Position numbers and translations under genes: made by a program | Part shown: piece after piece, positions 1 to 58,897 of the stretch | Position numbering within the stretch: the stretch's first letter is position 1 | Layout of the letters: the number at the start of each line of letters is the position of its first letter | UHGV virus genome: UHGV-0176771 | Length of the DNA: 64,000 nt | Direction: 5' to 3' (one strand) | DNA from: a virus | The notes under the pieces: model-generated | Told to the model about the DNA's origin: nothing | Seen by the model: only the letters and a program-made list of their open reading frames with translations | Databases searched by the model: none

Positions 1-166
1 AAATGTGTAATTACGACTATTTAAATGATTTATATGATCATTGTGATGAATGTAGAATTTATGGTGATGATTATTACGTAGATGAAAATGGAGAATGGAT
101 TGATGCATGTGAAAATTGCTCTATGAATCCATCGAATTTTGATGATTAAAAAGTGAGGCATAGAAA

Positions 167-496
167 GTGGACAAGAAAAAAGTTAGAGAAGCGATAGGAA
201 GGCTTCAAGTTGGGATTAATGCGAAAAGAGAAAATATAAAACTCAACAAAAAATTTTATCCAAAACAAGACAATATTCAATTAGAAGAAGATATTACTGT
301 TTATGAAACTGCAATCGAAGCACTGAAAAAGCAGTTGCCGAAGAAAGTGAAGATGCGAACAGAATACAGAGACTTAAACGATGAATTGATATGTTACAAA
401 GGGTTTTGCCCTAGTTGCGGAAACGTTGTTGACTCTTACAGAAATAAAAGTTGCAATCATTGCACACAGATGCTTGATTGGTCGGAAGCGCATTAA
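167..496 (+). CDS. hypothetical zinc-ribbon protein
   Basis: 109-aa ORF with a GTG start and a C-terminal CxxC...CxxC motif (CPSCGN...CNHC). Confidence 0.45.
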   Translation: MDKKKVREAIGRLQVGINAKRENIKLNKKFYPKQDNIQLEEDITVYETAIEALKKQLPKKVKMRTEYRDLNDELICYKGFCPSCGNVVDSYRNKSCNHCTQMLDWSEAH

Positions 497-593
497 AACG
501 TGTTAGGAAGCGTTAGAACGTGTTAAAAGTGCGTTAGAGTCGAGTCAAAACAAATTGAGTTGGGTTTCCTGAGAACTCTCTTTAGAACTTGTA

Positions 594-794
594 TTGACTC
601 AGGAAAGGAATGGAATGTGCTGGAAGTATAAAAACAATCATGGAACAGTTTATATTTATTGCGATATTTTGAACGGAAAAAGGCATTCATCAAGTTATTT
701 AACAGTGTTTAATGATTTAATAGATGGCTACGAAAGTAATTATAATTACTGCCCTTATTGTGGAAAGAAACTTGAAAACAAGGAGAGAATATAA
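594..794 (+). CDS. hypothetical small Cys-containing protein
   Basis: 66-aa ORF with CPYCGKKL near the C-terminus; the true start may be the internal ATG at 615. Confidence 0.35.
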   Translation: MTQERNGMCWKYKNNHGTVYIYCDILNGKRHSSSYLTVFNDLIDGYESNYNYCPYCGKKLENKERI

Positions 795-986
795 ATGGAA
801 GAACTAAAGAAATGCCCGTTTTGTGGCGGAGAAGCAAGCCTTATTAAAACAATTTGTTTGAATAATAATTACGAAGGATATTTTGTGCAACATGATTGTA
901 AGATGACAATAGCACCTATTGAGACAAGTAATTTTACCACCGAGAAAATGGCAATCAGAGCATGGAATAGGAGAGTGGAAGAATGA
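795..986 (+). CDS. Lar-family restriction-alleviation-like zinc-finger protein
   Basis: 63 aa starting MEELKKCPFCGG..., the N-terminal CPFCGG motif characteristic of Lar/PF14354 proteins. A paralogue lies at 2474-2683. Confidence 0.5.
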   Translation: MEELKKCPFCGGEASLIKTICLNNNYEGYFVQHDCKMTIAPIETSNFTTEKMAIRAWNRRVEE

Positions 987-1031
987 AAGAACAAACATTT
1001 GAAAGCATCCTGTACATGATTAAAAGATCAT

Positions 1032-1343
1032 GTGACAAGAATTTTACACAAGGAACTGAAACCAGAAATTGTAAGGTGCGCCACAAACATTTACATAGAG
1101 CAGATGCGACAGAACGGAGGAAAGGAAGATGAGCAGAAGGCACTTGGAAATATGGGAGAATACGGTGGAAGAATGACAAATTCAGAAAAAATAAGGAATA
1201 TGACAGATGAAGAACTCGCGACGGTGCTCATATGTCCAGCGGGATTCGATTTGAATTATAATATTAATTATGAGTGTAAAGGTGAAGAAGAATCTGATTG
1301 TTTGGAATGTATAAAACAGTGGTTACAGTCAGAGGAGGTTTAA
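1032..1343 (+). CDS. hypothetical protein
   Basis: 103-aa ORF that fits the + strand gene array. Confidence 0.4.
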   Translation: MTRILHKELKPEIVRCATNIYIEQMRQNGGKEDEQKALGNMGEYGGRMTNSEKIRNMTDEELATVLICPAGFDLNYNINYECKGEEESDCLECIKQWLQSEEV

Positions 1344-1345
1344 TT

Positions 1346-1888
1346 ATGAACAGACAAATCCTTTTTAAAGCAAAGAGAACAGATTGGGAAGAGCTTCCAA
1401 AAGATCAGTGGTGGGTGGAAGGTGATTTGTTGCACACGAGGTATGATGATATAGTTCTGATAAGCAATTTCGAAGACCAATTATTTAGATGTGACGGTAA
1501 TACAGTCTGCCAGTTCACAGGATTACATGACAATACAAAATGGGGAGATCTTACCGAAGCAGAAAAAGAATCATTTCTTTCCGATTGGAATTATAGAGAA
1601 GACAGAAAAAATAAAATTGAAGATTGGAGTGGTCGGAAGATTTGGGAGAATGATATTCTTAGATATAGCTATGACTATGATGGAAGTCCGTTTTTAAAAG
1701 ATGGCGAAGAGATAAAATATCGTGTAGGTGCTGTGTTTTGGAGCGAATGGAGGGGATCATGGGCAGTATGTGGACGAGGAAATAAAAAATATACTAATAA
1801 CGATGTTTTTAAATATAATCGGAATCCAAATAGAGCGGAAGTTATCGGAAACATTTCCGATAATCCAGAGCTGTTGGAGGTGGAATGA
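1346..1888 (+). CDS. YopX-family protein
   Basis: ATG preceded by AGAGGAGG. The N-terminus MNRQILFKAKRTDWEE...WWVEGDLLH matches the YopX signature (M.EIKFRAW...W..G.L). The ORF-track start at 1298 lacks an RBS. Confidence 0.5.
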   Translation: MNRQILFKAKRTDWEELPKDQWWVEGDLLHTRYDDIVLISNFEDQLFRCDGNTVCQFTGLHDNTKWGDLTEAEKESFLSDWNYREDRKNKIEDWSGRKIWENDILRYSYDYDGSPFLKDGEEIKYRVGAVFWSEWRGSWAVCGRGNKKYTNNDVFKYNRNPNRAEVIGNISDNPELLEVE

Positions 1889-1890
1889 TG
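1873..1890 (+). repeat. conserved gene-junction motif TTGGAGGTGGAATGATGG (copy 1 of 3)
   Basis: Shared 18-mer spanning the ...LEVE C-terminus, RBS, stop and start; see copies 2 and 3. Confidence 0.5.
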
Positions 1891-2100
1891 GATCTAAAAA
1901 TGGAATATTTAGGAATGGACACTATGACTTACAATTGTCTTCTTCGTGCAGGCGCAAGATCAATATTAGATGTATGTGATATTTTAAATGGCAAGAGAGC
2001 AATGCAGAGAAAAATTCCAGAATACGTTTTGAGAAAAGCGAAGGAATATGTTGAGACACAAGAAAGTATTTTGGGAGTCCGGTTGTTGGGAGAAGAGTAA
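1885..2100 (+). CDS. RNA polymerase alpha-subunit C-terminal-domain-like DNA-binding protein
   Basis: 71 aa; LGMDTMTYNCLLRAGARSILDV matches the RpoA CTD helix-hairpin-helix motif L.LS.R..NCL..AGI.TV.DL. Confidence 0.4.
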   Translation: MMDLKMEYLGMDTMTYNCLLRAGARSILDVCDILNGKRAMQRKIPEYVLRKAKEYVETQESILGVRLLGEE

Positions 2101-2285
2101 TGAAGTATAACAGGCTGAAGTATAACAGACAAAAGTTTTGCGATTGTAGCGACAAAGAAAAGTTGCGAATTGTAAAGGAAGAATTAGCACTTGAAACACA
2201 CGACAGAACTACGAAAGATGATTTATTGATGCTGCTTGATTGGACGTATAACAGATTAATAAAAGGTGATTTGGAGGTGGAGTGA
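2100..2285 (+). CDS. hypothetical protein
   Basis: 61-aa ORF ending ...LEVE, overlapping the recurrent TTGGAGGTGGAGTGATGA junction. Confidence 0.35.
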   Translation: MKYNRLKYNRQKFCDCSDKEKLRIVKEELALETHDRTTKDDLLMLLDWTYNRLIKGDLEVE

Positions 2286-2288
2286 TGA
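2271..2288 (+). repeat. conserved gene-junction motif TTGGAGGTGGAGTGATGA (copy 2 of 3)
   Basis: Identical 18-mer to 2733-2750. Confidence 0.5.
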
Positions 2289-2467
2289 ACGTATTAGAGA
2301 AAATCGTGGAAGAAATCGAATCCATGAAAAATGACGCCTACGAAACGCTGAAAGAAGAAAGGAAAAGACATGGATCAAGCAAAACAGCAGAAGAGCTGGA
2401 AAGTTATATCTATAGGTTGACCAGTGCAGAAGATATTGTGGAGAAGTATGCAGATAAGGAGGAATAA
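2282..2467 (+). CDS. hypothetical protein (N-terminus paralogous to 2932-3399)
   Basis: 61 aa; the N-terminus MNVLEKIVEEIE is nearly identical to the N-terminus of the DUF551 gene at 2932. Confidence 0.35.
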   Translation: MMNVLEKIVEEIESMKNDAYETLKEERKRHGSSKTAEELESYIYRLTSAEDIVEKYADKEE

Positions 2468-2473
2468 CATAAC

Positions 2474-2683
2474 ATGGAAGAATTGAAGAAATGTCCATTT
2501 TGTGGTTCCAACAGAGGGTATTACCAGATTGAAAGAGTACATAGGGCGTTGCTGTTTGATTTTGACGGCGAACCGATCGGAGGAACAGAAGATGTTACAG
2601 ATTATGCAGGACGTAGGAAACAGTGTATCGATTGTGGCAAGATACTCCCGAGGAAACTGTTTGAGGAAGTGATGGAAAAGTAA
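2474..2683 (+). CDS. Lar-family restriction-alleviation-like zinc-finger protein (second copy)
   Basis: 69 aa starting MEELKKCPFCGSNRGYYQ... with a second CIDCGK pair. Paralogue of 795-986. Confidence 0.5.
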   Translation: MEELKKCPFCGSNRGYYQIERVHRALLFDFDGEPIGGTEDVTDYAGRRKQCIDCGKILPRKLFEEVMEK

Positions 2684-2732
2684 ATTATTATTCCAAATTT
2701 CAGAAGAGCATTTGGAAAAATATTTTGAACTG

Positions 2733-2750
2733 TTGGAGGTGGAGTGATGA
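2733..2750 (+). repeat. conserved gene-junction motif TTGGAGGTGGAGTGATGA (copy 3 of 3)
   Basis: Identical 18-mer to 2271-2288. Confidence 0.5.
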
Positions 2751-2923
2751 AAATTCCAGATTGTGATTTTGTAGAGTCTACAGAATATGGGAATTATTGT
2801 TGTTTGGAACACTGTTCTTGTACCGAGGAAGAATGCGAAGTTCTTAGATATGGACTCGGGAAAGCGGATTTAGAAATAGCAGCCGAAGAGATGATGTTAT
2901 TGAAATCGAGCATGAATAGGTAG
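2747..2923 (+). CDS. hypothetical Cys-rich small protein
   Basis: 58-aa ORF, not in the supplied track because it is under 60 aa. ATG is preceded by GGAGGTGGAGTG; Cys-rich (CDFVE...CCLEHCSCTEEEC). Confidence 0.3.
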   Translation: MKIPDCDFVESTEYGNYCCLEHCSCTEEECEVLRYGLGKADLEIAAEEMMLLKSSMNR

Positions 2924-2931
2924 GTGAAATT

Positions 2932-3399
2932 ATGAACGTATTAGAGAAGATTTTGGAAGAGATTGAAGAACGTGTGAACATGGTTGAAAACATTCCAGTA
3001 GATGAAGATGATGGTTTTCTGGATGGCGAGGAGTGTTATGAAGCCGGAAGAATACAAGGTCGATATGAAGAGCTAGTATGGTGCAGAAATATAATTCGTT
3101 CTCACATGGATGAAGTTCAAAATTGCGGAGATTGTAGCCGAAGAAAATGGTATCAGAAAGGATATGAAGACAGTAAGAAAGATAATGGGTGGATTCCTTA
3201 TACAGAACAAAATATGCCTAAGAAAGAAGGTATATATCTTGTAACGTGTGACGATAAAGAATATCCGGTAAAGAGAATGAGATTTAAAAAAGAGGATGAA
3301 TATGGTCTCTGGTATGACGATTATGGGATTTATGACGGGGTAATATTTGCATGGCAGCCACTTCCAAAACCGTACAAAATGAAGAATGAAGGAGAATAA
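2932..3399 (+). CDS. DUF551-domain protein
   Basis: 155 aa; the C-terminal GWIPYTEQNMPKKEGIYLVT... resembles the DUF551 core (W....LP.....VL) common in phage early regions. Confidence 0.45.
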   Translation: MNVLEKILEEIEERVNMVENIPVDEDDGFLDGEECYEAGRIQGRYEELVWCRNIIRSHMDEVQNCGDCSRRKWYQKGYEDSKKDNGWIPYTEQNMPKKEGIYLVTCDDKEYPVKRMRFKKEDEYGLWYDDYGIYDGVIFAWQPLPKPYKMKNEGE

Positions 3400-3402
3400 A
3401 TA

Positions 3403-3585
3403 ATGTCTGAAAATGCGAAAGAGCAAATAGAAATTGTTCTTGAATTATTGAGAAAATCATTGATAGATAATGGTGTTTCTATGGGGATATCAGAAAAGAA
3501 AATAATGTTTTTTGATACGGAAGAATATTTATCAACAGGAAAGTTTGATGGATTTTCTGTAAATATTGATAGCTTAGTTAAATAA
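3403..3585 (+). CDS. hypothetical protein
   Basis: 60-aa ORF in the + strand array. Confidence 0.3.
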   Translation: MSENAKEQIEIVLELLRKSLIDNGVSMGISEKKIMFFDTEEYLSTGKFDGFSVNIDSLVK

Positions 3586-3625
3586 TGAAAGCAGAATTTC
3601 AAAAGGAGAAAGAGAGAGCTAATAT

Positions 3626-3907
3626 ATGAAGAAAAACAATGTAAAAACAGCCACCATCAGATGTGATGATAATGCAGAAGCAGTTGTGTTTTCTAAATAT
3701 ATAACGGAAAATTCAACTGATTTTGAAATCTCTTTTGAGGATTCATATTGCGGTGGAGATTTTAAAGGAATTATTGGAAGATTTAAAAGAGCATGGATGG
3801 CGTTCTGGAATAAGCCGGTATGTTATACAGGTATATATTGTGAAAGTGGGCGTGATAGAGTAAGAAACTTTCTGAAAGAATGCTTGGAATTGGTAGAAGG
3901 AGAATAG
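3626..3907 (+). CDS. hypothetical protein
   Basis: 93-aa ORF; RBS AAGGAGAAAGAGAG upstream. Confidence 0.4.
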   Translation: MKKNNVKTATIRCDDNAEAVVFSKYITENSTDFEISFEDSYCGGDFKGIIGRFKRAWMAFWNKPVCYTGIYCESGRDRVRNFLKECLELVEGE

Positions 3908-3912
3908 GGAAT

Positions 3913-4452
3913 ATGAAGGTTTTAGTTGTAGTAGATATGCAAAACGATTTTGTGAGTGGAAATTTGGGAACAAAAGAAGCAGTTGCAATTGTTCCGGATG
4001 TAAAGAAAAAAATTGAAGAATATTACAATAACGGTGATGTAGTTTTCTTCACAAAAGACACACATTTGGATGGTTATTTAGATACTCAGGAAGGTAAAAA
4101 ATTGCCTGTAGAGCATTGTGTTATTGGAACAAACGGATGGGAAATTGTAGACGAATTAAAATCTTACGCAAAACACGTAATTAATAAAAATAGATTTGGA
4201 AGTAATTACCTTGCAGAATGTATCCATGGCGGTTTTGCTAGTAATGATTATGATAGCGTTGAACTTGTTGGTGTATGTACTGATATTTGTGTAGTGTCGA
4301 ATGCTCTATTAATTAAAGCATGGGTGCCAGAAATGGAAATTACAGTCGATGCGTCGTGCTGCGCTGGTGTCACTCCTGAAAAGCATAGAGCTGCGTTAGA
4401 AGTGATGAAATCTTGTCAAATTAATGTGATTGGAGAGAAAACTTATGATTAA
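3913..4452 (+). CDS. isochorismatase-family hydrolase, nicotinamidase (PncA)-like
   Basis: MKVLVVVDMQNDF... is the isochorismatase/nicotinamidase N-terminal motif; a catalytic Cys lies in the VGVCTDICV context; His residues sit where PncA has its metal site. First gene of the NAD operon. Confidence 0.6.
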   Translation: MKVLVVVDMQNDFVSGNLGTKEAVAIVPDVKKKIEEYYNNGDVVFFTKDTHLDGYLDTQEGKKLPVEHCVIGTNGWEIVDELKSYAKHVINKNRFGSNYLAECIHGGFASNDYDSVELVGVCTDICVVSNALLIKAWVPEMEITVDASCCAGVTPEKHRAALEVMKSCQINVIGEKTYD

Positions 4453-5260
4453 AATTAACGGAGAGGTGTTAAATACAAAGAAGTTTCCAGACGGAACACT
4501 TTTGATTAAAGAGGATGTTCCTTATAATTTTGAAAATTATAGAGAGGCAACTATTACATGGTTGTTTGAAAATAATGAAGAATTAGTGACGCTAATTTAT
4601 ATTGTAAAGCATCTTAATTCTCATGGTATTGCAAGTCTGTATCTGAATATGCCATATATCCCAAACAGTCGTCAAGACCGTGTTAAAACAACTGAAGACG
4701 TATTTACATTAAAGTATTTTGCGGAAGTTATTAATTGGTTGGATTTTGATTCTGTAACAGTATTAGATCCACATTCATCTGTAAGCGAAGCTCTTATTGA
4801 TAGAGTTTTAATTAAATATCCAGACAAATATGTGTGGAAAGCGATTGAAAGTGAATACATTGGTGGCACAAATAATCTTACAATGTTCTATCCGGACGAA
4901 GGAGCTATGAAACGTTATTCTACAATGTTTGATCTTCCTTATGCTTTTGGTATTAAAAAGCGCGATTGGGAAACAGGGGAGATTAAAGGACTAGATGTTT
5001 CAGGCATGACAAATCTGATTAAAGGAAGAAAAATTTTAATTGTAGATGATATTTCAAGTCGTGGCGGAACATTTTATCATTCAGCTATTAAGTTAAAGGA
5101 ACTGGGAGCAAAGGAGATTTATCTATATGTATCTCATTGTGAAAATACAATCCTCGAAGGAGAAGTATTGAGTAGTGGATTGATTGACAGAGTGTTCACG
5201 ACAAATAGTATTTTTACAAAAGAACATGAGAAAGTAGAGGTATTTGAATATGACGAATAA
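4445..5260 (+). CDS. ribose-phosphate pyrophosphokinase (Prs)-like enzyme, candidate ADPR-PP synthetase (Adps-like)
   Basis: 272 aa; PRPP-binding loop ILIVDDISSRGGTF; two-domain PRTase-like layout; translationally coupled to the NAMPT-like gene, the arrangement reported for phage NARP1. Confidence 0.6.
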   Translation: MIKINGEVLNTKKFPDGTLLIKEDVPYNFENYREATITWLFENNEELVTLIYIVKHLNSHGIASLYLNMPYIPNSRQDRVKTTEDVFTLKYFAEVINWLDFDSVTVLDPHSSVSEALIDRVLIKYPDKYVWKAIESEYIGGTNNLTMFYPDEGAMKRYSTMFDLPYAFGIKKRDWETGEIKGLDVSGMTNLIKGRKILIVDDISSRGGTFYHSAIKLKELGAKEIYLYVSHCENTILEGEVLSSGLIDRVFTTNSIFTKEHEKVEVFEYDE

Positions 5261-6734
5261 GACAAATCCAATGTTATTAATTGACTTTTATAAAGCGGTT
5301 CATGCAGAAATGCTACCTGAAAATATTACAAAATCAGTTTCCTATTTTACTCCTAGAATGAGTCGTGTAAAACGATGGGATAAAGTAGTAATGTTTGGAT
5401 TACAGGGGTTTATTAAAACGTATCTGATTGATTATTTCAATGAAGAATTTTTTGACAAACCTTTTGAAGAAATTATTTATGAATATAAAAGAATTATGGA
5501 TGCATCACTTGGTAAGGATGCGTATAAAATTGACAAGATTGAAAGTCTACATAAATTGGGATATTTGCCAATTGAGATTGTTGCATTGCCAGAAGGTACA
5601 ATTGTTCCAATGCATGTGCCTATGTTTGGTATTACAAATACACATAAAGATTTTGCATGGCTGCCTCAGAGTTTAGAAAGTCTTATCTCGGCAGAAATGT
5701 GGCATCCAATGTTAGCAGCAACAGTAGGAATGACCTATCGTGGCATCGTTAATCACTATTATGGTCTAACTTGTGATGACTATATTCCAAGATCAAAAGC
5801 TCTTGGTGCCTTTGACTTCCGGGGAGAAGAGTGTTTGGAATCAGCGGTAAAAGCAGGCGCTGGGTGGTGTTTATCATTTTTGAATACAGCAACCGTTCCA
5901 ACTATTCCTTATCTTGAAAAGAATTATTTTTGTGATTGTACAAAAGAACCTGTTGCATATGGAAGTCCTAGTACAGAACATTCTGTAATGTGCAGTAATT
6001 ATGCAGTAGATGGAGACGAGATTACATTATTAAGAAGATTACTTACTGAAATCTATCCAAACACAAGTTTTTCAGCAGTTCTTGACTCTTATGATTATTG
6101 GAATATCATCGATAATATTCTTCCTCAATTAAAAACAGAAATCATGAATCATAACGGATGCATGTTGATGCGTGGAGATTCTGGAGATTGTGTAGAAGTT
6201 GTAACAAAAACTGTATTTAAATTATGGGAAGAATTTGGCGGGACAGTTAATAGCAAGGGGTATAAAGTGTTAGATCCACATGTAAAAGCAATTTACGGTG
6301 ACTCAATTACAGTACAGAGATGTGAAAAAATTTACAGAATTCTTATGGAAAATGGATTTGCGTGTTCAAATGTAGCACTAGGAGTTGGATCGTTTTCATT
6401 TCAGTGCATCGAAGAAGATGGAGTATTAAAACCATTTACAAGGGACACTTTTAGTTCTTGTATTAAAGCAACATATTGTGAGATTGATGGAAAAGCTACT
6501 CCAATTTTTAAAAATCCTAAGGACGGTGGTTTTAAGAAATCACAGAAAGGATGCTGCAGAGTATATACACGATGTGATGGAAGTATTTATTACGAGGATG
6601 GGCTTACATGGAAACAGGCTATTGATTATGAAAAACGTGGAAATATGTTAATTCCAGTCTTTAAAGATGGAGAATTATTAAAAGAACAATCGTTAAAAGA
6701 AATTAGAGATAGACTACATGGAGGAGAATTTTAA
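5244..6734 (+). CDS. NAMPT-family nicotinamide phosphoribosyltransferase-like enzyme (NadV/Namat-like)
   Basis: 496 aa. Blocks align to NAMPT: GYLPIEIVALPEG (human GHLPIEIKAVPEG), FDFRGEE (HDFGYRG), AVLDSYD (VVSDSYD), RGDSGD (RPDSGN), NSKGYKVLDPHVKAIYGDSI ([20 protein letters not shown]). Confidence 0.8.
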   Translation: MNMTNKTNPMLLIDFYKAVHAEMLPENITKSVSYFTPRMSRVKRWDKVVMFGLQGFIKTYLIDYFNEEFFDKPFEEIIYEYKRIMDASLGKDAYKIDKIESLHKLGYLPIEIVALPEGTIVPMHVPMFGITNTHKDFAWLPQSLESLISAEMWHPMLAATVGMTYRGIVNHYYGLTCDDYIPRSKALGAFDFRGEECLESAVKAGAGWCLSFLNTATVPTIPYLEKNYFCDCTKEPVAYGSPSTEHSVMCSNYAVDGDEITLLRRLLTEIYPNTSFSAVLDSYDYWNIIDNILPQLKTEIMNHNGCMLMRGDSGDCVEVVTKTVFKLWEEFGGTVNSKGYKVLDPHVKAIYGDSITVQRCEKIYRILMENGFACSNVALGVGSFSFQCIEEDGVLKPFTRDTFSSCIKATYCEIDGKATPIFKNPKDGGFKKSQKGCCRVYTRCDGSIYYEDGLTWKQAIDYEKRGNMLIPVFKDGELLKEQSLKEIRDRLHGGEF

Positions 6735-7486
6735 TGTTTAATGCAAATGAAATTAAAACTGAAATTATTGAATGGATCCAGAACTTCTTTAAAGAGAACG
6801 GGAGTGGTTGTAAAGCAGTTGTTGGTATTTCAGGAGGGAAGGATTCGACGATTGTTGCTGCACTCTGCGTTGAAGCTCTAGGAAAAGAAAGAGTGCTTGG
6901 AGTCCTAATGCCAAACGGTAAACAAAAAGATATTGATGTTGCAAAGAAGGTGGTTGATCATCTTGGAATTGAAAATATCGAGGTGAATATTTTCAATGCA
7001 GTAAGAGATATTAAACATGAAGTGAAGTCTGAATTGGACGATCACTGGAGCAGACAGTCTTCTATCAATCTGCCGGCGCGAATTAGAATGGCTACATTAT
7101 ATGCTGTGTCTCAGACTGTAAATGGAAGAGTTGCGAATACATGTAATTTATCTGAAGATTGGATTGGATATAGTACAAGGTGGGGAGATAGTGTTGGTGA
7201 TTTCAGTCCATTGTCTAATCTGACTGTTACGGAAGTTAAGGAAGTCGGATATGCACTTGGACTTCCGAAAGAGTTCATTGAGAAAATTCCATCAGATGGT
7301 CTTTGTGATAAAACAGATGAAGATAATTTAGGATTTACATATGAAGTTCTCGATAAATATATCAGAACAGGCGTAATTGATGACAAACAATTAAAGAAAA
7401 AAATTGACCAGATGCACGAAAAGAATTTGTTTAAATTGCAAATGATGCCGTCATTTAGTTTTAAACACGAGAGTGATAAAAGTTGA
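6734..7486 (+). CDS. nadE: NH3-dependent NAD+ synthetase
   Basis: 250 aa; PP-loop VVGISGGKDSTIVAAL; NLPARIRM and the downstream SPL/GLP blocks align with B. subtilis NadE. Confidence 0.8.
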   Translation: MFNANEIKTEIIEWIQNFFKENGSGCKAVVGISGGKDSTIVAALCVEALGKERVLGVLMPNGKQKDIDVAKKVVDHLGIENIEVNIFNAVRDIKHEVKSELDDHWSRQSSINLPARIRMATLYAVSQTVNGRVANTCNLSEDWIGYSTRWGDSVGDFSPLSNLTVTEVKEVGYALGLPKEFIEKIPSDGLCDKTDEDNLGFTYEVLDKYIRTGVIDDKQLKKKIDQMHEKNLFKLQMMPSFSFKHESDKS

Positions 7487-9647: not shown

Positions 9648-11705
9648 ATGGAATTTAAAGAATTTAGAAATATGATTTCTGATCATTTTAAAACAATGAC
9701 AAAAGATGTTGATAGGTTGTTTGAAGTTGGTGTAGATAAGGATGAAATGTGGAATACATATCTTGATAGTTTTCCGTCAGGAACAAATGAGATTTACAGG
9801 AAAAGAAGGGAATATGATTGTAGTTGTTGTAGACAGTTTATCAAGCAAATTGGTAATGCTGTAGTAGTTAAAGACAATAAGCTGGAGACAATTTGGGATT
9901 TAGACATTCATGATAATAAATTTGAAACTGTTGCAAAAGCTATGTCTGATTTTATAAGAAGGCACTGTGTGACAGACGTGTATGTAAGCAAATTCAAAAA
10001 AATTGGAACAGAGTCCAACTATGAACAGTATGAAGACGGAACAATGAAAAAGTGGGAACATTTTCAAATTATTTTAGACGATAAATTTGTGGACAAAACT
10101 ACTCGATCAATTGGTGATATTAAAGGCGGATTTAGAGACACGAAAAATGTATTTAAAAGGTCTCTTGATGAAATTTCTATGGATGCGTTAGAGACAGTGC
10201 TTGAGCTTATCAATTCCAACACTCTATACAAAGGAGAAGAGTGGAAGTCTATCCTGATGGAATTTAAGAGATATAAGAAAGAATATGAAAAATTAAATTC
10301 TGATGAGGATCGCGATTTATATGCATGGGAGAATTCTGTAAAAGCAGGTATTGCAATTGGACGAATTAGAAATCACAGTATCGGAACACTTCTTGTGAAT
10401 GTAAGTAATGACATGGATCTTGATACAGCAGTAAAAAAATATGAACAGATTGTAGCACCGGCAAATTATAAAAGACCTAAAGCAATTTTTACGAAAAAAA
10501 TGTTAGAAGATGCAAAGAAGACAATTTCTGAATTAGGATATATGGATTCTCTCAATAGAAGATTTGCAACTTTGGATGATATTACGGTGAATAATATTTT
10601 GTTCTCAAATAAAGATGCAGCGAAACGAATTTCAGATTCATCTGACATCTTTGGAGAATTAGAAAAACAGGTTGTAGTTAATCCAAGAAAATTTTCAAGA
10701 GTAGAAGAAATTTCTGCAAATGATTTCATTAAAAATGTCTTACCATCAGCGAAAGAAGTAGAAGTGCTAGTGGAAAACAAGCATTCGAATAATTTTGTTT
10801 CTCTAATTGCTCCTTGCAACAAAGATTCTAAATCAATGTTTAAATGGAACAATGGATTGAGTTGGGCTTATTCAGGCAATATTACGGATTCTGACATGAA
10901 GCAGAATGTAAAAGCTGCAGGTGGAAATGTGGATGGTGTTCTTAGATTCTCTATCCAATGGAATGAAGATGGAAGAGACAATTGTGATTTAGATGCACAT
11001 TGTATTGAACCAAACGGAAATGAAATTTATTTCAGTAATTGTAGAAAACCATCAATGTCATATATGACAGGTCAACTTGATGTAGACATTATTCATCCAA
11101 ATGGCAAGGTTGCTGTGGAAAATATTACATGGTCAGATAAATCAAAAATGAAACCAGGTGTTTACAAATTTTTTGTAAATCAGTATTCAGGAAGTGCTAG
11201 AAATGGATTTAGAGCAGAGATTGAATTCAATGGAGAAATTTATTCTTTTGATTATAGCAATTCAATGAGAACGGGACAAGATGTTTATGTAGCTGATGTA
11301 ATTTTGGATACTAATGGGGAATTTACAATCAAGGAAAAAATTTCCGGGAACTCTAAAGTCTCAAGTAGAACAGTTTGGGGAATTTCAACAAATGAGTTTA
11401 CGCCGGTATCGGTAGTTTGTTATAGCCCAAATTATTTTGACGAACAGGACGGTATTGGTCATAGACATTTGTTCTTTATGTTGAACGGATGTAAAAATGA
11501 TGAAGAACCAAATGGATACTATAATGAATTCTTAAAGAGTGAATTAGAAAAGCATAAAAGAGTATTTGAAGCTCTAGGATCAAAATGCCATGTAGAAGAT
11601 TCTGAGGATCAGCTTTCTGGAATTGGTTTTAGCATGACAAAAAGAGCAGAGCTGGTTGTAAAAGTAAAAGGTGCAACAGAGAGAATTTTAAAAATTAAGT
11701 TTTAA
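9648..11705 (+). CDS. large hypothetical protein (685 aa)
   Basis: Long uninterrupted ORF with a strong RBS (AAGAGAGGTAATAAGT ATG); no motif I can assign with confidence. Confidence 0.5.
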   Translation: MEFKEFRNMISDHFKTMTKDVDRLFEVGVDKDEMWNTYLDSFPSGTNEIYRKRREYDCSCCRQFIKQIGNAVVVKDNKLETIWDLDIHDNKFETVAKAMSDFIRRHCVTDVYVSKFKKIGTESNYEQYEDGTMKKWEHFQIILDDKFVDKTTRSIGDIKGGFRDTKNVFKRSLDEISMDALETVLELINSNTLYKGEEWKSILMEFKRYKKEYEKLNSDEDRDLYAWENSVKAGIAIGRIRNHSIGTLLVNVSNDMDLDTAVKKYEQIVAPANYKRPKAIFTKKMLEDAKKTISELGYMDSLNRRFATLDDITVNNILFSNKDAAKRISDSSDIFGELEKQVVVNPRKFSRVEEISANDFIKNVLPSAKEVEVLVENKHSNNFVSLIAPCNKDSKSMFKWNNGLSWAYSGNITDSDMKQNVKAAGGNVDGVLRFSIQWNEDGRDNCDLDAHCIEPNGNEIYFSNCRKPSMSYMTGQLDVDIIHPNGKVAVENITWSDKSKMKPGVYKFFVNQYSGSARNGFRAEIEFNGEIYSFDYSNSMRTGQDVYVADVILDTNGEFTIKEKISGNSKVSSRTVWGISTNEFTPVSVVCYSPNYFDEQDGIGHRHLFFMLNGCKNDEEPNGYYNEFLKSELEKHKRVFEALGSKCHVEDSEDQLSGIGFSMTKRAELVVKVKGATERILKIKF

Positions 11706-30737: not shown

Positions 30738-31766
30738 ATGAATCTGAAACAAATTAAAGAAACGATAAAGAAACAAGAATATGATTTCTTAAAAGAGAAT
30801 GAGCACTTAGGTAACAATATTGTCTTACTTACGCTTGGCGGCAGTCACGCATATGGAATGGATAAAGAGGACAGTGATTTAGACGTAAGAGGAGTTACAC
30901 TAAATAGCAAAGAGGAAATTCTTCTTGGAAAAGACTTTGAACAGGTTGTAGAGATTGATACAGATACGACAGTTTATTCATTTAATAAAATTTTACAATT
31001 ACTAAAATCAAACAATCCTAACACTATTGAAATTTTAGGATGCAAACCTGAGCATTATTTATATTTGTCTGATGTTGGGAGAGAATTATTAAATAATAGA
31101 AAAATGTTCTTATCCAAGATTTGTATTAATTCTTTTGCAGGATACGCATCAAGCCAATTACGACGTATGGAGAACAAAGCTGCTAGATTAGTTGGACAGG
31201 CACAAAACGAAGAGTACATTTTAAAATCAATCAATAATGCAAGCTATGACTTTAAAAACCATTACTTCCCAATGAGTGATGGATCACTCAATCTTTATAC
31301 AGATAAAGCAGTGCAGGAAGGTTATGACACTGAAATTTTTATGGACATTGATTTAAAGCATTATCCACTAAGAGATTGGACTGGTATGTGGAATGAGATG
31401 AAAGCTATTGTAAGTAGTTATAACAAAATTGGTAGGCGAAACGAAAAAGCAATGAACAAGGACAAACTTGGAAAGCATATGGCTCATTTGATCAGATTAT
31501 ACATGATGTGTATTGACATTCTTGAAAAAGAAGAAATTATCACTTATCGAGATAAAGAACATAATTTACTTATGAGTATACGAAACGGAGAATACTTAGA
31601 TAGCAATAGACAGCCAACTTCTGAATTTTATGATTTGCTAAATGAGTATGAAAAACGTTTTGATTATGCCAAAGAAAATACTTCGTTGTCAGATGTGCCG
31701 GACTACAAGAGAATTGAAGAGTTCAAAATGTATATAAATGAACGAATTGTGAAAGGAGATATTTAA
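30738..31766 (+). CDS. Pol-beta-superfamily nucleotidyltransferase (RlaP/PF10127-like or MenT/AbiEii-like)
   Basis: 342 aa; N-terminal NTase signature LTLGGSHAYGMDKEDSDLDVRGV (GS...[DE]xD after a beta-strand), followed by a long alpha-helical region. Confidence 0.5.
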   Translation: MNLKQIKETIKKQEYDFLKENEHLGNNIVLLTLGGSHAYGMDKEDSDLDVRGVTLNSKEEILLGKDFEQVVEIDTDTTVYSFNKILQLLKSNNPNTIEILGCKPEHYLYLSDVGRELLNNRKMFLSKICINSFAGYASSQLRRMENKAARLVGQAQNEEYILKSINNASYDFKNHYFPMSDGSLNLYTDKAVQEGYDTEIFMDIDLKHYPLRDWTGMWNEMKAIVSSYNKIGRRNEKAMNKDKLGKHMAHLIRLYMMCIDILEKEEIITYRDKEHNLLMSIRNGEYLDSNRQPTSEFYDLLNEYEKRFDYAKENTSLSDVPDYKRIEEFKMYINERIVKGDI

Positions 31767-32728
31767 TGGATATTTCTGAAAAACTGAAAGAACGTTTCTG
31801 TAAAGATTGTAATATTCCATTGAAACTATTTAAGGAACCATATTTTACAGACAGACTTCAATTATATGATAACTATTACAATACATTGGATAAATGGAAT
31901 ATTTTTGTAAGAGAGTTAGAGAAATATAAGTGTGAGCAAGATTATCTTGAAGAATATAATCGAGTAAAGGATGCTGCAATAAAGGACATTAAAGATTCCG
32001 ATGGTTACAAGAGATTAAATGCTGAAGACATGGGAAAATATTCATTAAAATACAAAGATCTCCCAGGTAAAGATATTTATAAACCATCAAATGTTGGGAA
32101 ACTGTTTATTAGTATTGATATGAGAAAGGCAAATTTTTCAGCATTAAAATTTTATGCTAAAAGTATTTTTAGTAACTCTGATACATGGGAAGAATTTATT
32201 GAAAGATATACGGAGAATAAACATATCGTAAACAGCAAATATATTAGACAAGTTATTCTTGGAAACTGTAATCCTAAAAGGCAGGTGACTTATGAAAAAT
32301 ATTTGATGGGTCTTGTATTAGAAGTTCTTATTGATGAATTAGGATATTCCACTAGTGATATTGCGTTTTACTCTAATGATGAAATTGTTATTGATATGGG
32401 AAAATATAAAGGCTGTATAAATAAACAAAAAATATTAGAAATGGCAGTTAACGTACGTTTTAATATTCCATTCAGGATTGAATTGTTTTACTTACACAAA
32501 ATTACTGGTACAGATGGATATTGCAAGGAAATTGTAAAAAATATTATTGAAAGAGAATATGAATTTAAATGCTTAAACAATTATACATTACCATTTGTGC
32601 TGAGAAAGTTTAATGGAGAAGAAATCACTGAAAACGATAAAGTATTTTATCATGAAGGATTACTATCGAAATTTATGGAAGTACCAAATATGGAGGTAAA
32701 ATTGAATGAAAATAAATATTCCGTCTGA
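31766..32728 (+). CDS. hypothetical protein (320 aa) coupled between the NTase and the CCA-adding enzyme
   Basis: Start overlaps the upstream stop (ATG inside ...TTTAATGG); its end overlaps the CCA-adding enzyme start by 23 nt. No motif assigned. Confidence 0.45.
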   Translation: MDISEKLKERFCKDCNIPLKLFKEPYFTDRLQLYDNYYNTLDKWNIFVRELEKYKCEQDYLEEYNRVKDAAIKDIKDSDGYKRLNAEDMGKYSLKYKDLPGKDIYKPSNVGKLFISIDMRKANFSALKFYAKSIFSNSDTWEEFIERYTENKHIVNSKYIRQVILGNCNPKRQVTYEKYLMGLVLEVLIDELGYSTSDIAFYSNDEIVIDMGKYKGCINKQKILEMAVNVRFNIPFRIELFYLHKITGTDGYCKEIVKNIIEREYEFKCLNNYTLPFVLRKFNGEEITENDKVFYHEGLLSKFMEVPNMEVKLNENKYSV

Positions 32729-49023: not shown

Positions 49024-50976
49024 ATGGACAAGGTCAAAAGAATTAAAGAGCTTGTAGAGCAGCTAAACGAATATAGAGATGCTTACTATAATGAAGCAAG
49101 ATCTGATGTTTCTGATGCAGAATACGATAGATTATTCGATGAATTATCGGAGCTTGAAAATGAAACTGGTGTTGTGTATACGAATTCGCCAACACAGTCC
49201 GTTGGGTATGAGGTGAAATCTGAACTAGAAAAGGTTAAACATTCCCATCCAATGCTATCACTTGATAAAACAAAATCTGTAGATGATTTAGTAAAATTTG
49301 CTAGAGATAAAGACTGTATTTTAAGTCTGAAAATGGATGGATTGACATGTCTTCTTACATATGAAAATGGAGAGTTGGTTCAGGCAGAAACTCGTGGAGA
49401 TGGAGAGATTGGTGAATTAATTACTCACAATGCAAGAGTATTTGATAATATTCCGTTATCGATTGATTATAAAGGTCATTTTGAAATCGAAGGAGAAGCT
49501 ATTATTACATATGAAGACTTTGACAAAATCAATAAGTCATTGCCAGACGATAAAAAATATAAGAATCCGAGAAATTTAGCTTCTGGATCTGTACGACAAT
49601 TAGACAGTAAAATTGCAGCACAACGTCATATCAAATTTATTGCGTGGAAAGTGCCAACAGATATTGCGTCAAGTAGTTTTATCAATAGATTGCAGTATGC
49701 TGTAGAATTGGGATTTGACACTGTTCCGCTTTTGCCTATTCGTGGAAATTGCAATGCTGAATTTATTAATATTGTGGTAGAACAATTACGAAAACGTGCA
49801 AATGAAAAGAGCTTTCCGATTGATGGCTTAGTGGCAACGTACAATGATATTACATACGGAGAGTCACTTGGAATGACAGGTCATCATCCCAAACATTCTA
49901 TTGCATTTAAATTCGCAGAGGACTCAGAAGAAACTGTATTGAGAGAAATTGAATGGAGTATGGGCAAGACAGGAACTCTTACGCCAGTAGCAATTTTTGA
50001 TTCAGTTGATTTGGCAGGAACATCAGTGAGTAGAGCTTCATTGCACAACATTAGTATTATGAAAGAATTGAATATTTCTATCGGATCAACAGTAACAGTT
50101 GTAAAGAAGAATGAAATTATTCCACAGATTATTTCCTGCGATGCAAATGCTATGGATGCAGATATTCCTACAACATGTCCTGTATGTGGCGGAGAGACTC
50201 GGATTGTAAAAGAAAACGATTCAGAAGTTTTAATGTGTGTTAATCCTCATTGTAAAGGCAAGCTACTAGGAAGAGTTTCTCATTTTGTTTCCAAGAAAGG
50301 TATGGATATCTCAGGTTTGTCAGAAGAAACAATTAAGAAACTCATTGAACTTGGATGGATTGCAGAGATTACAGACATCTACAATCTTGACCAGTATTAT
50401 GATAGGCTTTCTACGATGTCTGGATTTGGAAAGAAATCAGTAGACAAGTTAAGAAAATCAATTGAAAACAGCAAAACCGTAAGATTGGATAAATTTATTG
50501 CATCATTAAGTATTCCTGGGATTGGAACATCACAGTCAAAAGAGCTGGTTAAAGCTTTTGGTGCATGGGACAAGTTTAGGGATGCCAGCGTTGGTTATTA
50601 TAACTTTACGCAGCTTGACGGTTTTGGAGACGTATTAAATAACAATATTCATTCTTGGTTTGAAGATATGAGTAATATTGCAGATTATCTTGCTTCTCTT
50701 ATGACGTTTGAATCAGAAGACAATTCTAAAACAAGCAATTCTTTGAATGGCAAATCATTTGTTGTTACCGGAAAAGTATATAAATTCAAAAATCGTGATG
50801 AAGTAAAAGAAGCTATTGAAAAATTCGGTGGGAAAGTAACAGGTTCTGTAACAAAATCCACATTTGCTTTAATCAATAACGATATAGAATCCAATAGCAG
50901 TAAAAATAAAAAAGCAAAGGAACTTGGTGTTCAGATTATTAACGAAGAACAGTTAATTGAGATGTTGGGCATGTAG
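49024..50976 (+). CDS. ligA: NAD+-dependent DNA ligase
   Basis: ATG after AAAGGAGTGATTTG; adenylation motif LKMDGLTC (KxDG); Zn finger CPVCGGE...C..C; HhH region; C-terminal BRCT-like FVVTGKVYKF...; about 650 aa. Confidence 0.85.
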   Translation: MDKVKRIKELVEQLNEYRDAYYNEARSDVSDAEYDRLFDELSELENETGVVYTNSPTQSVGYEVKSELEKVKHSHPMLSLDKTKSVDDLVKFARDKDCILSLKMDGLTCLLTYENGELVQAETRGDGEIGELITHNARVFDNIPLSIDYKGHFEIEGEAIITYEDFDKINKSLPDDKKYKNPRNLASGSVRQLDSKIAAQRHIKFIAWKVPTDIASSSFINRLQYAVELGFDTVPLLPIRGNCNAEFINIVVEQLRKRANEKSFPIDGLVATYNDITYGESLGMTGHHPKHSIAFKFAEDSEETVLREIEWSMGKTGTLTPVAIFDSVDLAGTSVSRASLHNISIMKELNISIGSTVTVVKKNEIIPQIISCDANAMDADIPTTCPVCGGETRIVKENDSEVLMCVNPHCKGKLLGRVSHFVSKKGMDISGLSEETIKKLIELGWIAEITDIYNLDQYYDRLSTMSGFGKKSVDKLRKSIENSKTVRLDKFIASLSIPGIGTSQSKELVKAFGAWDKFRDASVGYYNFTQLDGFGDVLNNNIHSWFEDMSNIADYLASLMTFESEDNSKTSNSLNGKSFVVTGKVYKFKNRDEVKEAIEKFGGKVTGSVTKSTFALINNDIESNSSKNKKAKELGVQIINEEQLIEMLGM

Positions 50977-58552: not shown

Positions 58553-58897
58553 ATGCGTAAAAAAAATTACAAGGGTCGATGTGAGAAGAGGACAATATCG
58601 AAAAGTAAAGATGTGTGCAGATTCTACGATCCAATTCAATCGAGTTTTGCAGAAATTCTTAACGCAGATCCAGACATTGAGGAAATTCGTTGCAATGTAG
58701 TTTTAGATGGAAAAGACACAGGCGAATATATGACAGATTTTCTTTGTATTAAAACAAACGGAGATATGCTTGTCCGTGAATGTGTCTATCGAAAATTTCT
58801 CACAAAACCTATGACAGTCAAATTCTTAGACATTAGCAAAGATTATTGGTTGAGACACGGTATTGAAGATTGGGGTGTTGTAATTGATGCAGAATAA
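58553..58897 (+). CDS. tnsA: TnsA-like PD-(D/E)xK endonuclease, short (catalytic domain only)
   Basis: ATG after AAGGAGAATACAAGAAA; MTDFLCIKTNGDMLVRECVYRK aligns to Tn7 TnsA STDFLVDCKDGPFEQFAIQVKP (D114...K132 region); overlaps the tnsB start. Only 115 aa, against about 270 aa for Tn7 TnsA. Confidence 0.5.
   Translation: MRKKNYKGRCEKRTISKSKDVCRFYDPIQSSFAEILNADPDIEEIRCNVVLDGKDTGEYMTDFLCIKTNGDMLVRECVYRKFLTKPMTVKFLDISKDYWLRHGIEDWGVVIDAE

Follow-up and report, generated by a model that had tools for sequence, protein, structure and literature searches.

Within a 64-kb stretch of phage DNA (the window, meaning the whole of the sequence analysed), four adjacent genes on the plus strand encode enzymes of NAD+ metabolism, which raises the question of the route, and of the pyridine base, from which they would rebuild NAD+. 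NARP1, composed of Adps and Namat, is the closest described pathway (Osterman et al. 2024), and structures of SpβL1 Namat are available (9W5W/9W5X). A preliminary description of the locus had offered two readings: a NARP1-type Adps/Namat pair that works through nicotinate together with PncA and NadE, or NARP1 combined with separate salvage steps.

Four translationally coupled genes

The first gene (3913..4452, plus strand) encodes a 179 aa protein that matches the Isochorismatase family (PF00857, 3.9e-27) and aligns full-length with the P. horikoshii pyrazinamidase/nicotinamidase (1ILW/1IM5). The isochorismatase fold carries an Asp-Lys-Cys catalytic triad, D8 (3934-3936), K92 (4186-4188) and C126 (4288-4290), together with the Asp-His-His metal ligands of nicotinamidases, D49, H51 and H68, in keeping with the isochorismatase/nicotinamidase-like hydrolase described previously. 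By alignment, we take these residues to be the equivalents of P. horikoshii PncA D10/K94/C133 and D52/H54/H71, with roles as given by Du et al. 2001. D8, C126, D49, H51 and H68 are invariant across 122 distinct homologues, and K92 is a Lys in 117/123. The protein scores 24.6 bits against the NCBIfam E. coli-type PncA equivalog NF008623, for which the cut-off is 174, and judged by its sequence it is a distant PncA member; it also matches phrog_19305 (1.4e-40), a family that has no annotated function.

The second gene (4445..5260, plus strand, 271 aa) encodes a Prs homologue of the Adps type, as had been proposed. Its product matches phrog_619 (1e-67, 229 bits), the family in which the characterised SpβL1 Adps scores 248 bits, and it shares 43% identity with SpβL1 Adps (174 bits), while any solved Prs gives 60 bits or less. 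The protein also lies below every one of the NCBIfam Prs equivalog cut-offs. Previously, SpβL1 Adps yielded no product in a Prs-type assay (bioRxiv 10.1101/2024.02.11.579819).

The third gene (5250..6734, plus strand, 494 aa) probably starts at ATG 5250 and not at the alternative TTG 5244, judging by gene callers and by where its Shine-Dalgarno sequence lies. The encoded protein displays NAPRTase and NAMPT_N domains and matches phrog_448 (4.5e-157). It had been described as a clear NAMPT homologue, and it does belong to the NAMPT family, although both sequence and fold are closer to Namat: in the PDB it matches SpβL1 Namat (9W5W/9W5X) best, at 2.5e-117 and 396 bits, as compared to about 155 bits for NAMPT, and an AF2 model (pLDDT 94.2) superposes on 9W5X with a TM of 0.92-0.94 and an rmsd of 1.7 Å, against 0.86 and 2.9 Å for human NAMPT. 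A plain NAMPT identity was rejected on these grounds. Bit scores and model superposition thus place the products of 4445-5260 and 5244-6734 nearer to Adps and Namat than to the canonical enzymes, the comparison that the preliminary description had called for. The core residues D12, Y14, R191, H244, R308, D310 and TRD 397-399 are all kept.

The fourth gene (6734..7486, plus strand, 250 aa) is nadE, again as described: its product matches PF02540 (1.4e-54), exceeds the TIGR00552 cut-off (184 bits, cut-off 63.65) and has the PP-loop SGGKDS at residues 33-38 (6830-6847). It is a single-domain protein that lacks a glutaminase domain, as in NH3-dependent NAD+ synthetases. All elements of the translationally coupled operon were found where they had been placed. 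A base-by-base check located the overlap of the pncA stop with the adps start in ATGATTAA and the adps stop 11 nt into the Namat-like gene; TAATG is common to the stop of the latter and the nadE start, and a GGAG-type Shine-Dalgarno sequence lies 5' of each start. The NAD-dependent ligase reported at 49024..50976 (plus strand) was likewise confirmed as LigA, a phage-encoded NAD+ consumer, by its DNA_ligase_aden match (4.2e-56) and by its OB, HhH and BRCT domains. The phage also encodes many nucleotide-metabolism genes.

Ligand pockets and gene neighbourhoods of the Namat family

In alignments of the Namat-like protein, Ala214 (codon 5889..5891, plus strand) takes the place of Namat Asp215, equivalent to human NAMPT Asp219, and Ser241 (5970..5972, plus strand) that of Ala242, a residue of the nicotinamide pocket. 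The nicotinamide-binding Asp, which NARP1 needs to take nicotinamide as its base substrate, is thus an Ala in this phage. D215 of SpβL1 Namat makes a hydrogen bond to NAM in 9W5X (PMC12774641). Human NAPRT has a Ser at the position of NAMPT D219 (PMC4442680), and the NAMPT substitutions D219S and D219A are listed as switching substrate affinity and as activity loss, respectively (PMC4919578, Table 2). The Asp is in this way connected with the amide of nicotinamide, and a Ser in its place with specificity for nicotinate. Since human NAMPT D219A is listed as inactive and not as switched, and since the wild-type enzyme was crystallised with nicotinic acid (6TA0/6TA2), position 219 is not an absolute gate.

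Among about 155 diverse family members, positions 215 and 242 covary (D/A in 98, A/S in 34 and S/S in 17), and the sampled canonical Namats all keep the Asp (Glu in a few) together with the Ala. An unbiased scan of 443 columns returned position 242 as the top discriminator after the group-defining column; the next-best columns (187, 185/186, 213, 239/240 and 302/304/307) flank the segments that form the pocket, while the ribose, phosphate and catalytic contacts rank lowest, being conserved in both groups.

We compared the gene neighbourhoods of about 400 loci, de-replicated at 70% and 90% identity. Whichever the pocket type, nearly every locus has an Adps-like gene beside that of the Namat-family protein. 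In contrast, clusters with the Asp/Ala pocket never carry PncA or NadE (0/77 with either at 70%, 0/123 at 90%), whereas those with an Ala/Ser or Ser/Ser pocket all have PncA and/or NadE by Adps at 70% (10 clusters with both, 2 with one); at 90%, 36 variant-pocket clusters have both, 7 have one and 1 has neither. The linkage recurs in an independent genome-derived set (41/45) and is kept across three gene orders (114, 22 and 12 loci). Six loci (L053, L057, L185, L211, L017 and L409) have intact flanks, yet NadE or PncA is absent within 6-8 kb. Variant-pocket proteins group as a single clade with moderate NJ support (21/40 bootstraps), and the association between pocket and neighbours may reflect one ancestral event and co-inheritance, not repeated convergence.

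Basal variants with the A/S pocket occur in PncA/Adps/NadE operons of phage Phass-1 and in NrtR-headed Clostridium operons, including that of Clostridium botulinum, which contain nrtR, a prs-like gene, pncA, a Namat-like gene with the A/S pocket and nadE, and which lie in chromosomes without phage context. NrtR is an ADPR-sensing repressor. Because these chromosomes carry the same module, the phage version was probably exchanged with its Clostridia hosts. Besides, genes for a Macro-domain (Adpp-like) ADPR-1''-P phosphatase are found inside 68/231 variant operons, which points to a pathway fed by ADPR; the 64-kb window has no Macro domain match, and in 97%-identical relatives such a gene separates the Namat-like gene from nadE. 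No NadD/NMNAT (CTP_transf_like) was found within the 64-kb window, nor within 10 kb on either side in the relatives and bacterial operons, nor in the complete Phass-1 genome. The PncB-type NAPRT and NadD of the Preiss-Handler pathway are therefore not what the window holds, its transferase being of the Namat/NAMPT type. Bacillus phage G, for comparison, has a classical PncA-PncB-NadD-NadE set, with NadD and no Adps.

The second ligand site that differs is the adenine clamp. The stacking residue at the third SCL position (Arg, Lys or Tyr) is R39 in PRMSRVK, which aligns with SpβL1 R40, and F382 is retained as well. The adenine 'selectivity-clamp helix' (SCH) departs from the NARP1 motif and reads GSFSFQC-IEEDGVLKP-FTRD, with Phe at position 3, C386 at position 7 in place of Namat Y396, and then the nine-residue insertion IEEDGVLKP (6408..6434, plus strand), which is predicted to form an ordered beta-hairpin (AF2 model, pLDDT about 93). 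Among viral loci with a variant pocket, Phass-1 is the one exception in lacking the insertion, which no basal or bacterial variant and no canonical Namat has either; the basal A/S-pocket relatives have the clamp motif intact (GSYTYQYNTRD). With Y396 changed to Cys and the hairpin added, it is less sure in the subclade of the source phage than in its basal relatives that ADPR-PP would be preferred to PRPP.

A candidate route through nicotinate and its rivals

On sequence and gene context, we consider it rather probable that the operon encodes a deamidated NARP1. A host NADase would cleave NAD+ to ADP-ribose and nicotinamide; the phage nicotinamidase would convert the nicotinamide to nicotinate and NH3 (step 1), and the Adps-type enzyme would make ADPR-pyrophosphate (ADPR-PP) from ADPR and ATP (step 2). 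The Namat-family enzyme, with A214 and S241, would then join nicotinate and ADPR-PP into NaAD and PPi, bypassing NaMN and NadD (step 3), and NadE would turn NaAD, ATP and NH3 into NAD+ (step 4), at a net cost of one ATP above that of NARP1. The gene identities, catalytic motifs and pocket substitutions, and the strict linkage of the latter to PncA and NadE, come directly from the data; what steps 2 and 3 act on, and a role against host defence, are inferred. The nicotinate reading of the preliminary description is supported by the Adps and Namat types of the core pair, by the two pocket substitutions, by the co-occurring neighbours and by the absence of NadD from the window, from the surroundings of the relatives' operons and from the complete Phass-1 genome. 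To our knowledge, formation of NaAD from nicotinate and ADPR-PP has never been described. A nicotinate route is not mentioned in the consulted papers on NARP1, NARP1-AP, NARP2 and NARP3, and we rate the nicotinate-routed variant as putatively new, NAD+ reconstitution by Adps and Namat being already known. We lean, if only slightly, towards the view that this reaction constitutes a further NAD+ reconstitution route of gut Clostridia phages and also a native Clostridium pathway. If so, a PncA-Adps-'nicotinate ADPR-transferase'-NadE route would be abundant among such phages, and Clostridium species, C. botulinum and C. sporogenes among them, would possess an NrtR/ADPR-controlled native NAD recycling that bypasses NaMN and NadD.

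A rival without ADPR-PP chemistry is a Preiss-Handler pathway with a NAMPT-fold NAPRT, in which the nicotinate switch is real but the Prs-like protein makes PRPP, nicotinate and PRPP give NaMN, host NadD converts this to NaAD and phage NadE completes the route. Pocket switch and PncA/NadE linkage are equally compatible with it, the clamp of the source phage's subclade is disrupted by C386 and the insertion, and host NadD could finish the classical route. NadD is essential in bacteria and would be supplied by the host. PRPP is, moreover, still usable by SpβL1 Namat in vitro (PMC12774641; bioRxiv 10.1101/2024.02.11.579819). We nevertheless regard this pathway as unlikely: the Prs-like protein is of the Adps family and below every Prs equivalog cut-off, the full clamp signature is present in the basal variants with R39 and F382 kept in the source phage, variant operons contain Macro/Adpp genes and the ADPR-sensing NrtR, and these operons have all steps minus NadD, whereas the classical set of phage G includes it. 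An ordinary nicotinamide-using NARP1 next to two independent salvage genes, with PncA and NadE feeding the host Preiss-Handler pathway and the pocket changes being neutral drift, could draw on the fact that characterised systems need no more than Adps and Namat to reconstitute NAD+ (bioRxiv 10.1101/2024.02.11.579819; PMC12774641) and that phages, such as phage G, mix NAD genes. This version, the second of the two proposed originally, fits poorly and seems very improbable, because the co-translated nicotinamidase would compete for nicotinamide and, by destroying it, would starve a nicotinamide-dependent Namat. Again, the Asp is gone from every PncA/NadE-linked protein and present (Glu in a few) in the unlinked ones, the discriminating columns cluster at the pyridine pocket, D219A abolishes the nicotinamide activity of human NAMPT (PMC4919578), and neither three rearrangements nor a location in bacterial chromosomes has separated the four genes.

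A different alternative concerns the role and is compatible with the deamidated NARP1 chemistry, namely that the phage took over from the Clostridia NrtR regulon a housekeeping module for recycling ADPR and niacin, and employs it as a set of auxiliary metabolic genes that raises NAD+, for instance for LigA, without being dedicated to countering NAD-depleting defence. The NrtR-controlled operons in Clostridium chromosomes without phage context, the presence in the phage of LigA and many nucleotide-metabolism genes, and the treatment of bacterial NARP1 homologues as homeostatic modules (PMC12774641) are in favour of such a role. We hold it possible but doubtful, given that canonical NARP1, with the same two core enzymes, is proven to act against defence (bioRxiv 10.1101/2024.02.11.579819), that the Adpp-like Macro phosphatase added in 68/231 variant operons is a known aRES counter (bioRxiv 10.64898/2026.01.28.702374), and that free ADPR, the input of the pathway, arises mainly when NADases fire.

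Relation to known NAD+ pathways

The operon has in common with NARP1 the translational coupling of an Adps-family to a Namat-family gene (11 nt overlap), the fold of the transferase (TM 0.92-0.94) and the presumed input, ADPR; the catalytic core, the Arg of the SCL and the first aromatic residue of the SCH are kept too. Unlike NARP1, the source phage has Asp215 replaced by Ala, Ala242 by Ser and the second SCH aromatic by Cys followed by the nine-residue hairpin insertion; its operon includes a nicotinamidase and NadE, and the transferase is predicted to yield NaAD and not NAD+, with one extra ATP spent. Extension of a NARP1 operon by accessory enzymes has a precedent in NARP1-AP and its Macro-domain ADPR-1''-P phosphatase Adpp (bioRxiv 10.64898/2026.01.28.702374), although the operon of the source phage lacks a Macro gene and is extended on the pyridine half (PncA and NadE), not on the ADPR half; PncA, NadE and nicotinate are not mentioned in that preprint.

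The Preiss-Handler pathway is represented by Bacillus phage G gp275/277/281/283 and by the NrtR regulon of C. acetobutylicum; the operon shares with it a nicotinamidase as first enzyme, NaAD as the proposed intermediate and NadE as last enzyme, but the window has neither a PncB-type NAPRT nor NadD, both of which the Namat-family enzyme and Adps would replace via ADPR-PP. The NrtR-regulated prs-nadV operons of gamma-proteobacteria also couple a Prs paralogue to a NAMPT-family gene under ADPR-responsive NrtR (Rodionov et al. 2008, PMC2330246); in contrast to the variant operons, they contain no pncA or nadE, and the Clostridium nrtR/prs-like/pncA/Namat-like/nadE operons are not listed in that study. 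Finally, NARP2 (NAMPT and NMNAT) and NARP3 (PnuC and NadR; PMC13464706) are phage-encoded NAD+ restoration pathways as well, but they employ other enzymes, with NMN or nicotinamide riboside as intermediates and without Adps, PncA or NadE.

The operon and its Adps- and Namat-type enzymes

The window has a low GC content (~32%), carries nearly all of its genes on the + strand and displays replication and nucleotide-metabolism genes of the phage type. The preliminary description had placed a four-gene operon at 3913–7486, and domain matches together with the gene junctions confirm it in full. On the + strand, it encodes an isochorismatase-family, PncA-like protein (3913–4452; PF00857, 3.9e-27), a Prs-like protein (4445–5260; phrog_619, 1e-67) that falls under all NCBIfam Prs cut-offs, a NAMPT-family protein (5250–6734; phrog_448, 4.5e-157), hereafter the Namat-like protein, and NadE (6734–7486; TIGR00552, 184 bits for a cut-off of 63.65). 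The third gene, previously started at 5244, is present, while ATG 5250 is its likelier start. Because the junctions overlap or are shared (ATGATTAA, then an 11-nt overlap, then TAATG) and each has a Shine-Dalgarno sequence, the four genes are translationally coupled. The NAD-dependent ligase attributed to the phage was likewise found at 49024–50976 (+ strand). The operon is real and conserved, and its best reading, in which we place moderate confidence, is a variant of the NAD+ reconstitution pathway NARP1 routed through nicotinate.

In the original NARP1 work, SpβL1 Adps converts ADPR to ADPR-PP and gave no product in a Prs-type assay, while SpβL1 Namat prefers ADPR-PP over PRPP, nicotinamide being the only base tested. 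The closest solved structures of the Namat-like protein are 9W5W and 9W5X (2.5e-117, 396 bits), which are SpβL1 Namat with bound NAD+ and nicotinamide, respectively (PMC12774641); canonical NAMPTs reach ~155 bits. Its AlphaFold2 model (pLDDT 94.2) fits 9W5X at a TM of 0.92–0.94 and 1.7 Å, compared with 0.86 and 2.9 Å for human NAMPT. The Prs-like protein shares 43% identity (174 bits) and one PHROG with SpβL1 Adps, and no solved Prs structure exceeds 60 bits. By score, PHROG and fold, Adps and Namat are thus the nearest characterised enzymes, and the proposed NARP1-type pairing of the two genes is borne out. The match to NF006629 (431 bits), which NCBIfam calls "nicotinate phosphoribosyltransferase", was discarded as a sign of nicotinate use, since canonical Namat and NadV proteins carry the same label.

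Base pocket and adenine clamp of the Namat-like protein

Alignment of the Namat-like protein to SpβL1 Namat, whose numbering is used here, shows that D13, Y15, F189, R192, the catalytic His, R306, D308, G360-D361, G390-S391 and T398-R399-D400 are kept, as are Arg40 and Phe392 of the two adenine selectivity-clamp elements, SCL and SCH. The nicotinamide pocket has two changes, Asp215 to Ala214 and Ala242 to Ser241. In 9W5X, nicotinamide is hydrogen-bonded by Asp215 (PMC12774641), which aligns with Asp219 of human NAMPT; there, D219S is listed as switching substrate affinity and D219A as abolishing activity (PMC4919578, Table 2, citing Khan 2006). In the clamp helix, the motif GSFTYQYNTRD becomes GSFSFQC-IEEDGVLKP-FTRD, Tyr396 being replaced by Cys and followed by nine added residues that are confidently predicted by AlphaFold2 to form a beta-hairpin. 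Several canonical Namat homologues (P0173, P0202, P0231) have an insertion of ~300 residues, intein-like in appearance, exactly within the SCH motif (GS[FY]C...SHNTYQ); the clamp helix is apparently an insertion hotspot.

Across 150 family representatives at ≤50% identity, aligned with references, the residues at 215 and 242 change together (Asp/Ala in 98, Ala/Ser in 34, Ser/Ser in 17, and few others). When all 443 well-aligned columns were scored for separation of the two pocket groups, column 242 ranked first after the group-defining 215, and the next-best columns (187, 304, 213, 239, 185, 240, 302 and 307) lie beside the segments forming the pyridine pocket. The ribose, phosphate and catalytic contacts all rank 407–443, being conserved in both groups, and the remodelling is therefore concentrated at the base-binding site rather than on the ADPR-PP side. 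In a neighbour-joining tree of the Namat family built with columns 215 and 242 left out, the variant-pocket proteins form a single clade, with only moderate support (21/40 bootstraps). Insertion-free variants are basal, and the insertion-bearing forms, including that of the window, are nested inside them (23/40 bootstraps), which suggests that the pocket switched before the clamp acquired its insertion. The association between pocket and neighbouring genes described below is probably a clade-level trait and not repeated convergence.

Gene context of the two pocket types and the proposed pathway

In order to relate pocket to context, each of ~400 loci from IMG/VR and GenBank was classified by its pocket and by which of the genes for Adps, isochorismatase and NadE, detected with iterated HMMs, occur in its flanks. 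Adps, PncA and NadE occur together in 148 of 162 loci with an Ala/Ser or Ser/Ser pocket, nearly all of which have PncA or NadE and nearly all Adps. Among 154 loci with an Asp/Ala or Glu/Ala pocket, Adps is found in 148, PncA or NadE in none, and hence all three in none. An enlarged locus set gave the same picture; it includes repeat-fetched contigs, so that the de-replicated counts are fairer. At 90% single-linkage, 36 variant clusters have both PncA and NadE, 7 have one and 1 has neither, with 0/123 canonical clusters having either; at 70% the corresponding figures are 10, 2, 0 and 0/77. Variant loci lacking the full gene set are mostly truncated contigs, and a handful have intact flanks with no NadE or PncA in range. 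Three gene orders recur, X being the Namat-like gene: PncA-Adps-X-NadE (114 loci), Adps-X-NadE-PncA (22) and PncA-X-NadE-Adps (12). An independent set of bacterial and MAG assemblies agrees in 41 of the 45 cases with intact flanks. Neighbourhood searches of IMG/VR for the basal variants (A1 alignment; P0141, P0155 and P0152 as queries) either found nothing or brought up loci that were mostly canonical or of the insertion type. Fusion ("Rosetta stone") evidence was sought and set aside: the extra N-terminal sequence in P0151, P0158, P0263 and other proteins is an HNH domain or unannotated, not PncA, Adps or NadE.

In the pathway that we propose, PncA would deamidate nicotinamide, Adps would make ADPR-PP, the Ala/Ser-pocket Namat homologue would condense nicotinate with ADPR-PP to NaAD, and NadE would amidate NaAD, the NH3 freed by PncA offsetting that used by NadE. 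The net reaction would be Nam + ADPR + 2 ATP → NAD+ + 2 AMP + 2 PPi, at a cost of one ATP more than NARP1. The analysis shows the identities of the genes, their motifs and their linkage, whereas we infer the substrates of the Adps and Namat steps and a role against host defence. The NadD/NMNAT family was not detected in the 64-kb window, nor within 10 kb on each side in 97%-identical relatives, nor in the bacterial operons, and tblastn with phage G NadD as query found none in the complete genome of the gut phage Phass-1. With NadD alone absent, the operon thus covers every step from nicotinamide and ADPR to NAD+ but one that ADPR-PP chemistry would spare. Bacillus phage G, unlike the variant operons, has a classical PncA-PncB-NadD-NadE set, with NadD and without Adps.

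We consider a route in which nicotinate and PRPP give NaMN and host NadD completes the synthesis less likely; it has most weight in the subclade of the window, whose adenine clamp is altered. Plain NARP1 accompanied by unrelated salvage genes fits poorly. A housekeeping or auxiliary-metabolism role of the operon is compatible with the chemistry proposed for the nicotinate-routed variant. Regarding what that variant might gain, pncA in Clostridia belongs to an ADPR-induced regulon of NrtR, the ADPR-responsive repressor of NAD genes (PMC2330246), so that nicotinamide freed by NADases may undergo deamidation before a Namat that depends on it can use it. The ATP-driven NadE step would also make the nicotinate route irreversible.

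In 97%-identical phages (L413–L415), the Namat-like gene and NadE are separated by a Macro-domain gene (L413:11485–12000, 171 aa), which is missing from the window. This gene scores 27.6 bits in Pfam for a cut-off of 22, matches solved Appr-1''-p processing enzymes and ADPR-1''-phosphate phosphatases, and corresponds to Adpp of the recently described NARP1-AP. Its presence in 68/231 variant operons, versus 12/174 canonical ones, supports an ADPR-fed pathway.

Distribution of the variant operon and neighbouring features

Phass-1, a code-15 gut phage unrelated to that of the window, has the order nicotinamidase, Prs-like, NAMPT-like, small ORF, NadE, and its transferase combines an Ala/Ser pocket with an intact clamp motif (GAYTYQYVTRD). 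The small ORF (L078:4784–5203, − strand; 139 aa) has no Pfam match, and its DxDxT-like motif FDFDDTVF suggests that it may be a HAD-type phosphatase. A profile search seeded with the basal variants recovered 120 proteins, every one with an Ala/Ser pocket; with a single exception they are free of the insertion and have an SCH of canonical length, e.g. GSYTYQYNTRD. Many are encoded on Clostridium chromosomes, including those of botulinum, sporogenes and paraputrificum. The C. botulinum operon (DF384213.1) consists of NrtR (NUDIX plus NrtR winged helix), Prs-like, isochorismatase, Namat-like (Ala/Ser, intact clamp) and NadE genes, and two further bacterial contigs have the same set; in one bacterial genome (L409) NadE is not adjacent. 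The bacterial operon of L410 is extended by an AAA_33 kinase-like gene and two ORFs that carry no annotation. The NrtR regulon was described in 2008 with prs-nadV and classical pncA-pncB-nadD-nadE operons, and the combination of nrtR, Prs-like, pncA, Namat-like and nadE is not among the operons there (PMC2330246).

NadE, PncA, nicotinate and deamidation are not mentioned in the NARP1 preprint (Osterman 2024) or in the Namat structure and NARP3 papers and the aRES/NARP1-AP and RyR preprints, and the 2022 survey of viral NAD systems (Iyer 2022) mentions neither NadE nor PncA. NARP3, considered as a prior description, is PnuC plus NadR and unrelated. Among 50,697 GenBank phage records, only MT835544 and Phass-1 have PncA-like and NadE-like genes beside a Namat-family gene, and this scarcity in cultured phages is probably why INPHARED-based operon surveys did not report the arrangement. 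It is abundant in gut metagenomes, on contigs binned chiefly with Lachnospiraceae, Ruminococcus and other Clostridia. If true, the proposed pathway would add a new branch, built on a new enzymatic reaction, to the phage–bacteria NAD+ arms race, one that is common in the gut viromes of humans and animals. It would also offer a testable specificity code (D215/A242 versus A or S/S) by which to sort thousands of genes named "NAMPT", "NadV" or "nicotinate phosphoribosyltransferase". The bacterial operons suggest an ADPR-to-NAD recycling pathway owned by Clostridia under the ADPR sensor NrtR, which would bear on the purpose of bacterial NARP1 homologues, a question raised in PMC12774641.

Downstream of the operon, a conserved 685-aa ORF (9648–11705) has no Pfam match, is syntenic in close relatives and shows DUF8224 in relatives. 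An RNA-repair/tRNA cluster comprises RlaP (30738–31766), a CCA-adding enzyme with an HD domain (32706–34043) and two DHH-family phosphoesterases (34044–34952 and 42067–43698), and a DnaB-like helicase is encoded at 39613–41061. The region 12261–58000 also encodes anaerobic RNR NrdD and its activase, FolD, DNA Pol III alpha, dUTPase, guanylate kinase, an ERCC4 nuclease, a C5 cytosine methylase, and PAPS-reductase-like, SPFH/Band7 and sigma-70 region 2 proteins. At the right end, TniB/AAA_22 (60709–61959) and a TniQ/TnsD-family ORF assigned by elimination (61956–63566) make up a Tn7-like transposition module and are preceded by a 610-aa ORF with no Pfam match (58884–60716); in this region (58884–63566), GC skew falls from ~0.25 to 0.04–0.15. 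In L413 and L415, two of the 97%-identical phages, the upstream side of the operon (1–4500) carries a reverse transcriptase beside a bAvd-like ORF, resembling a diversity-generating retroelement, as well as a GmrSD_N-domain protein and a radical SAM gene.
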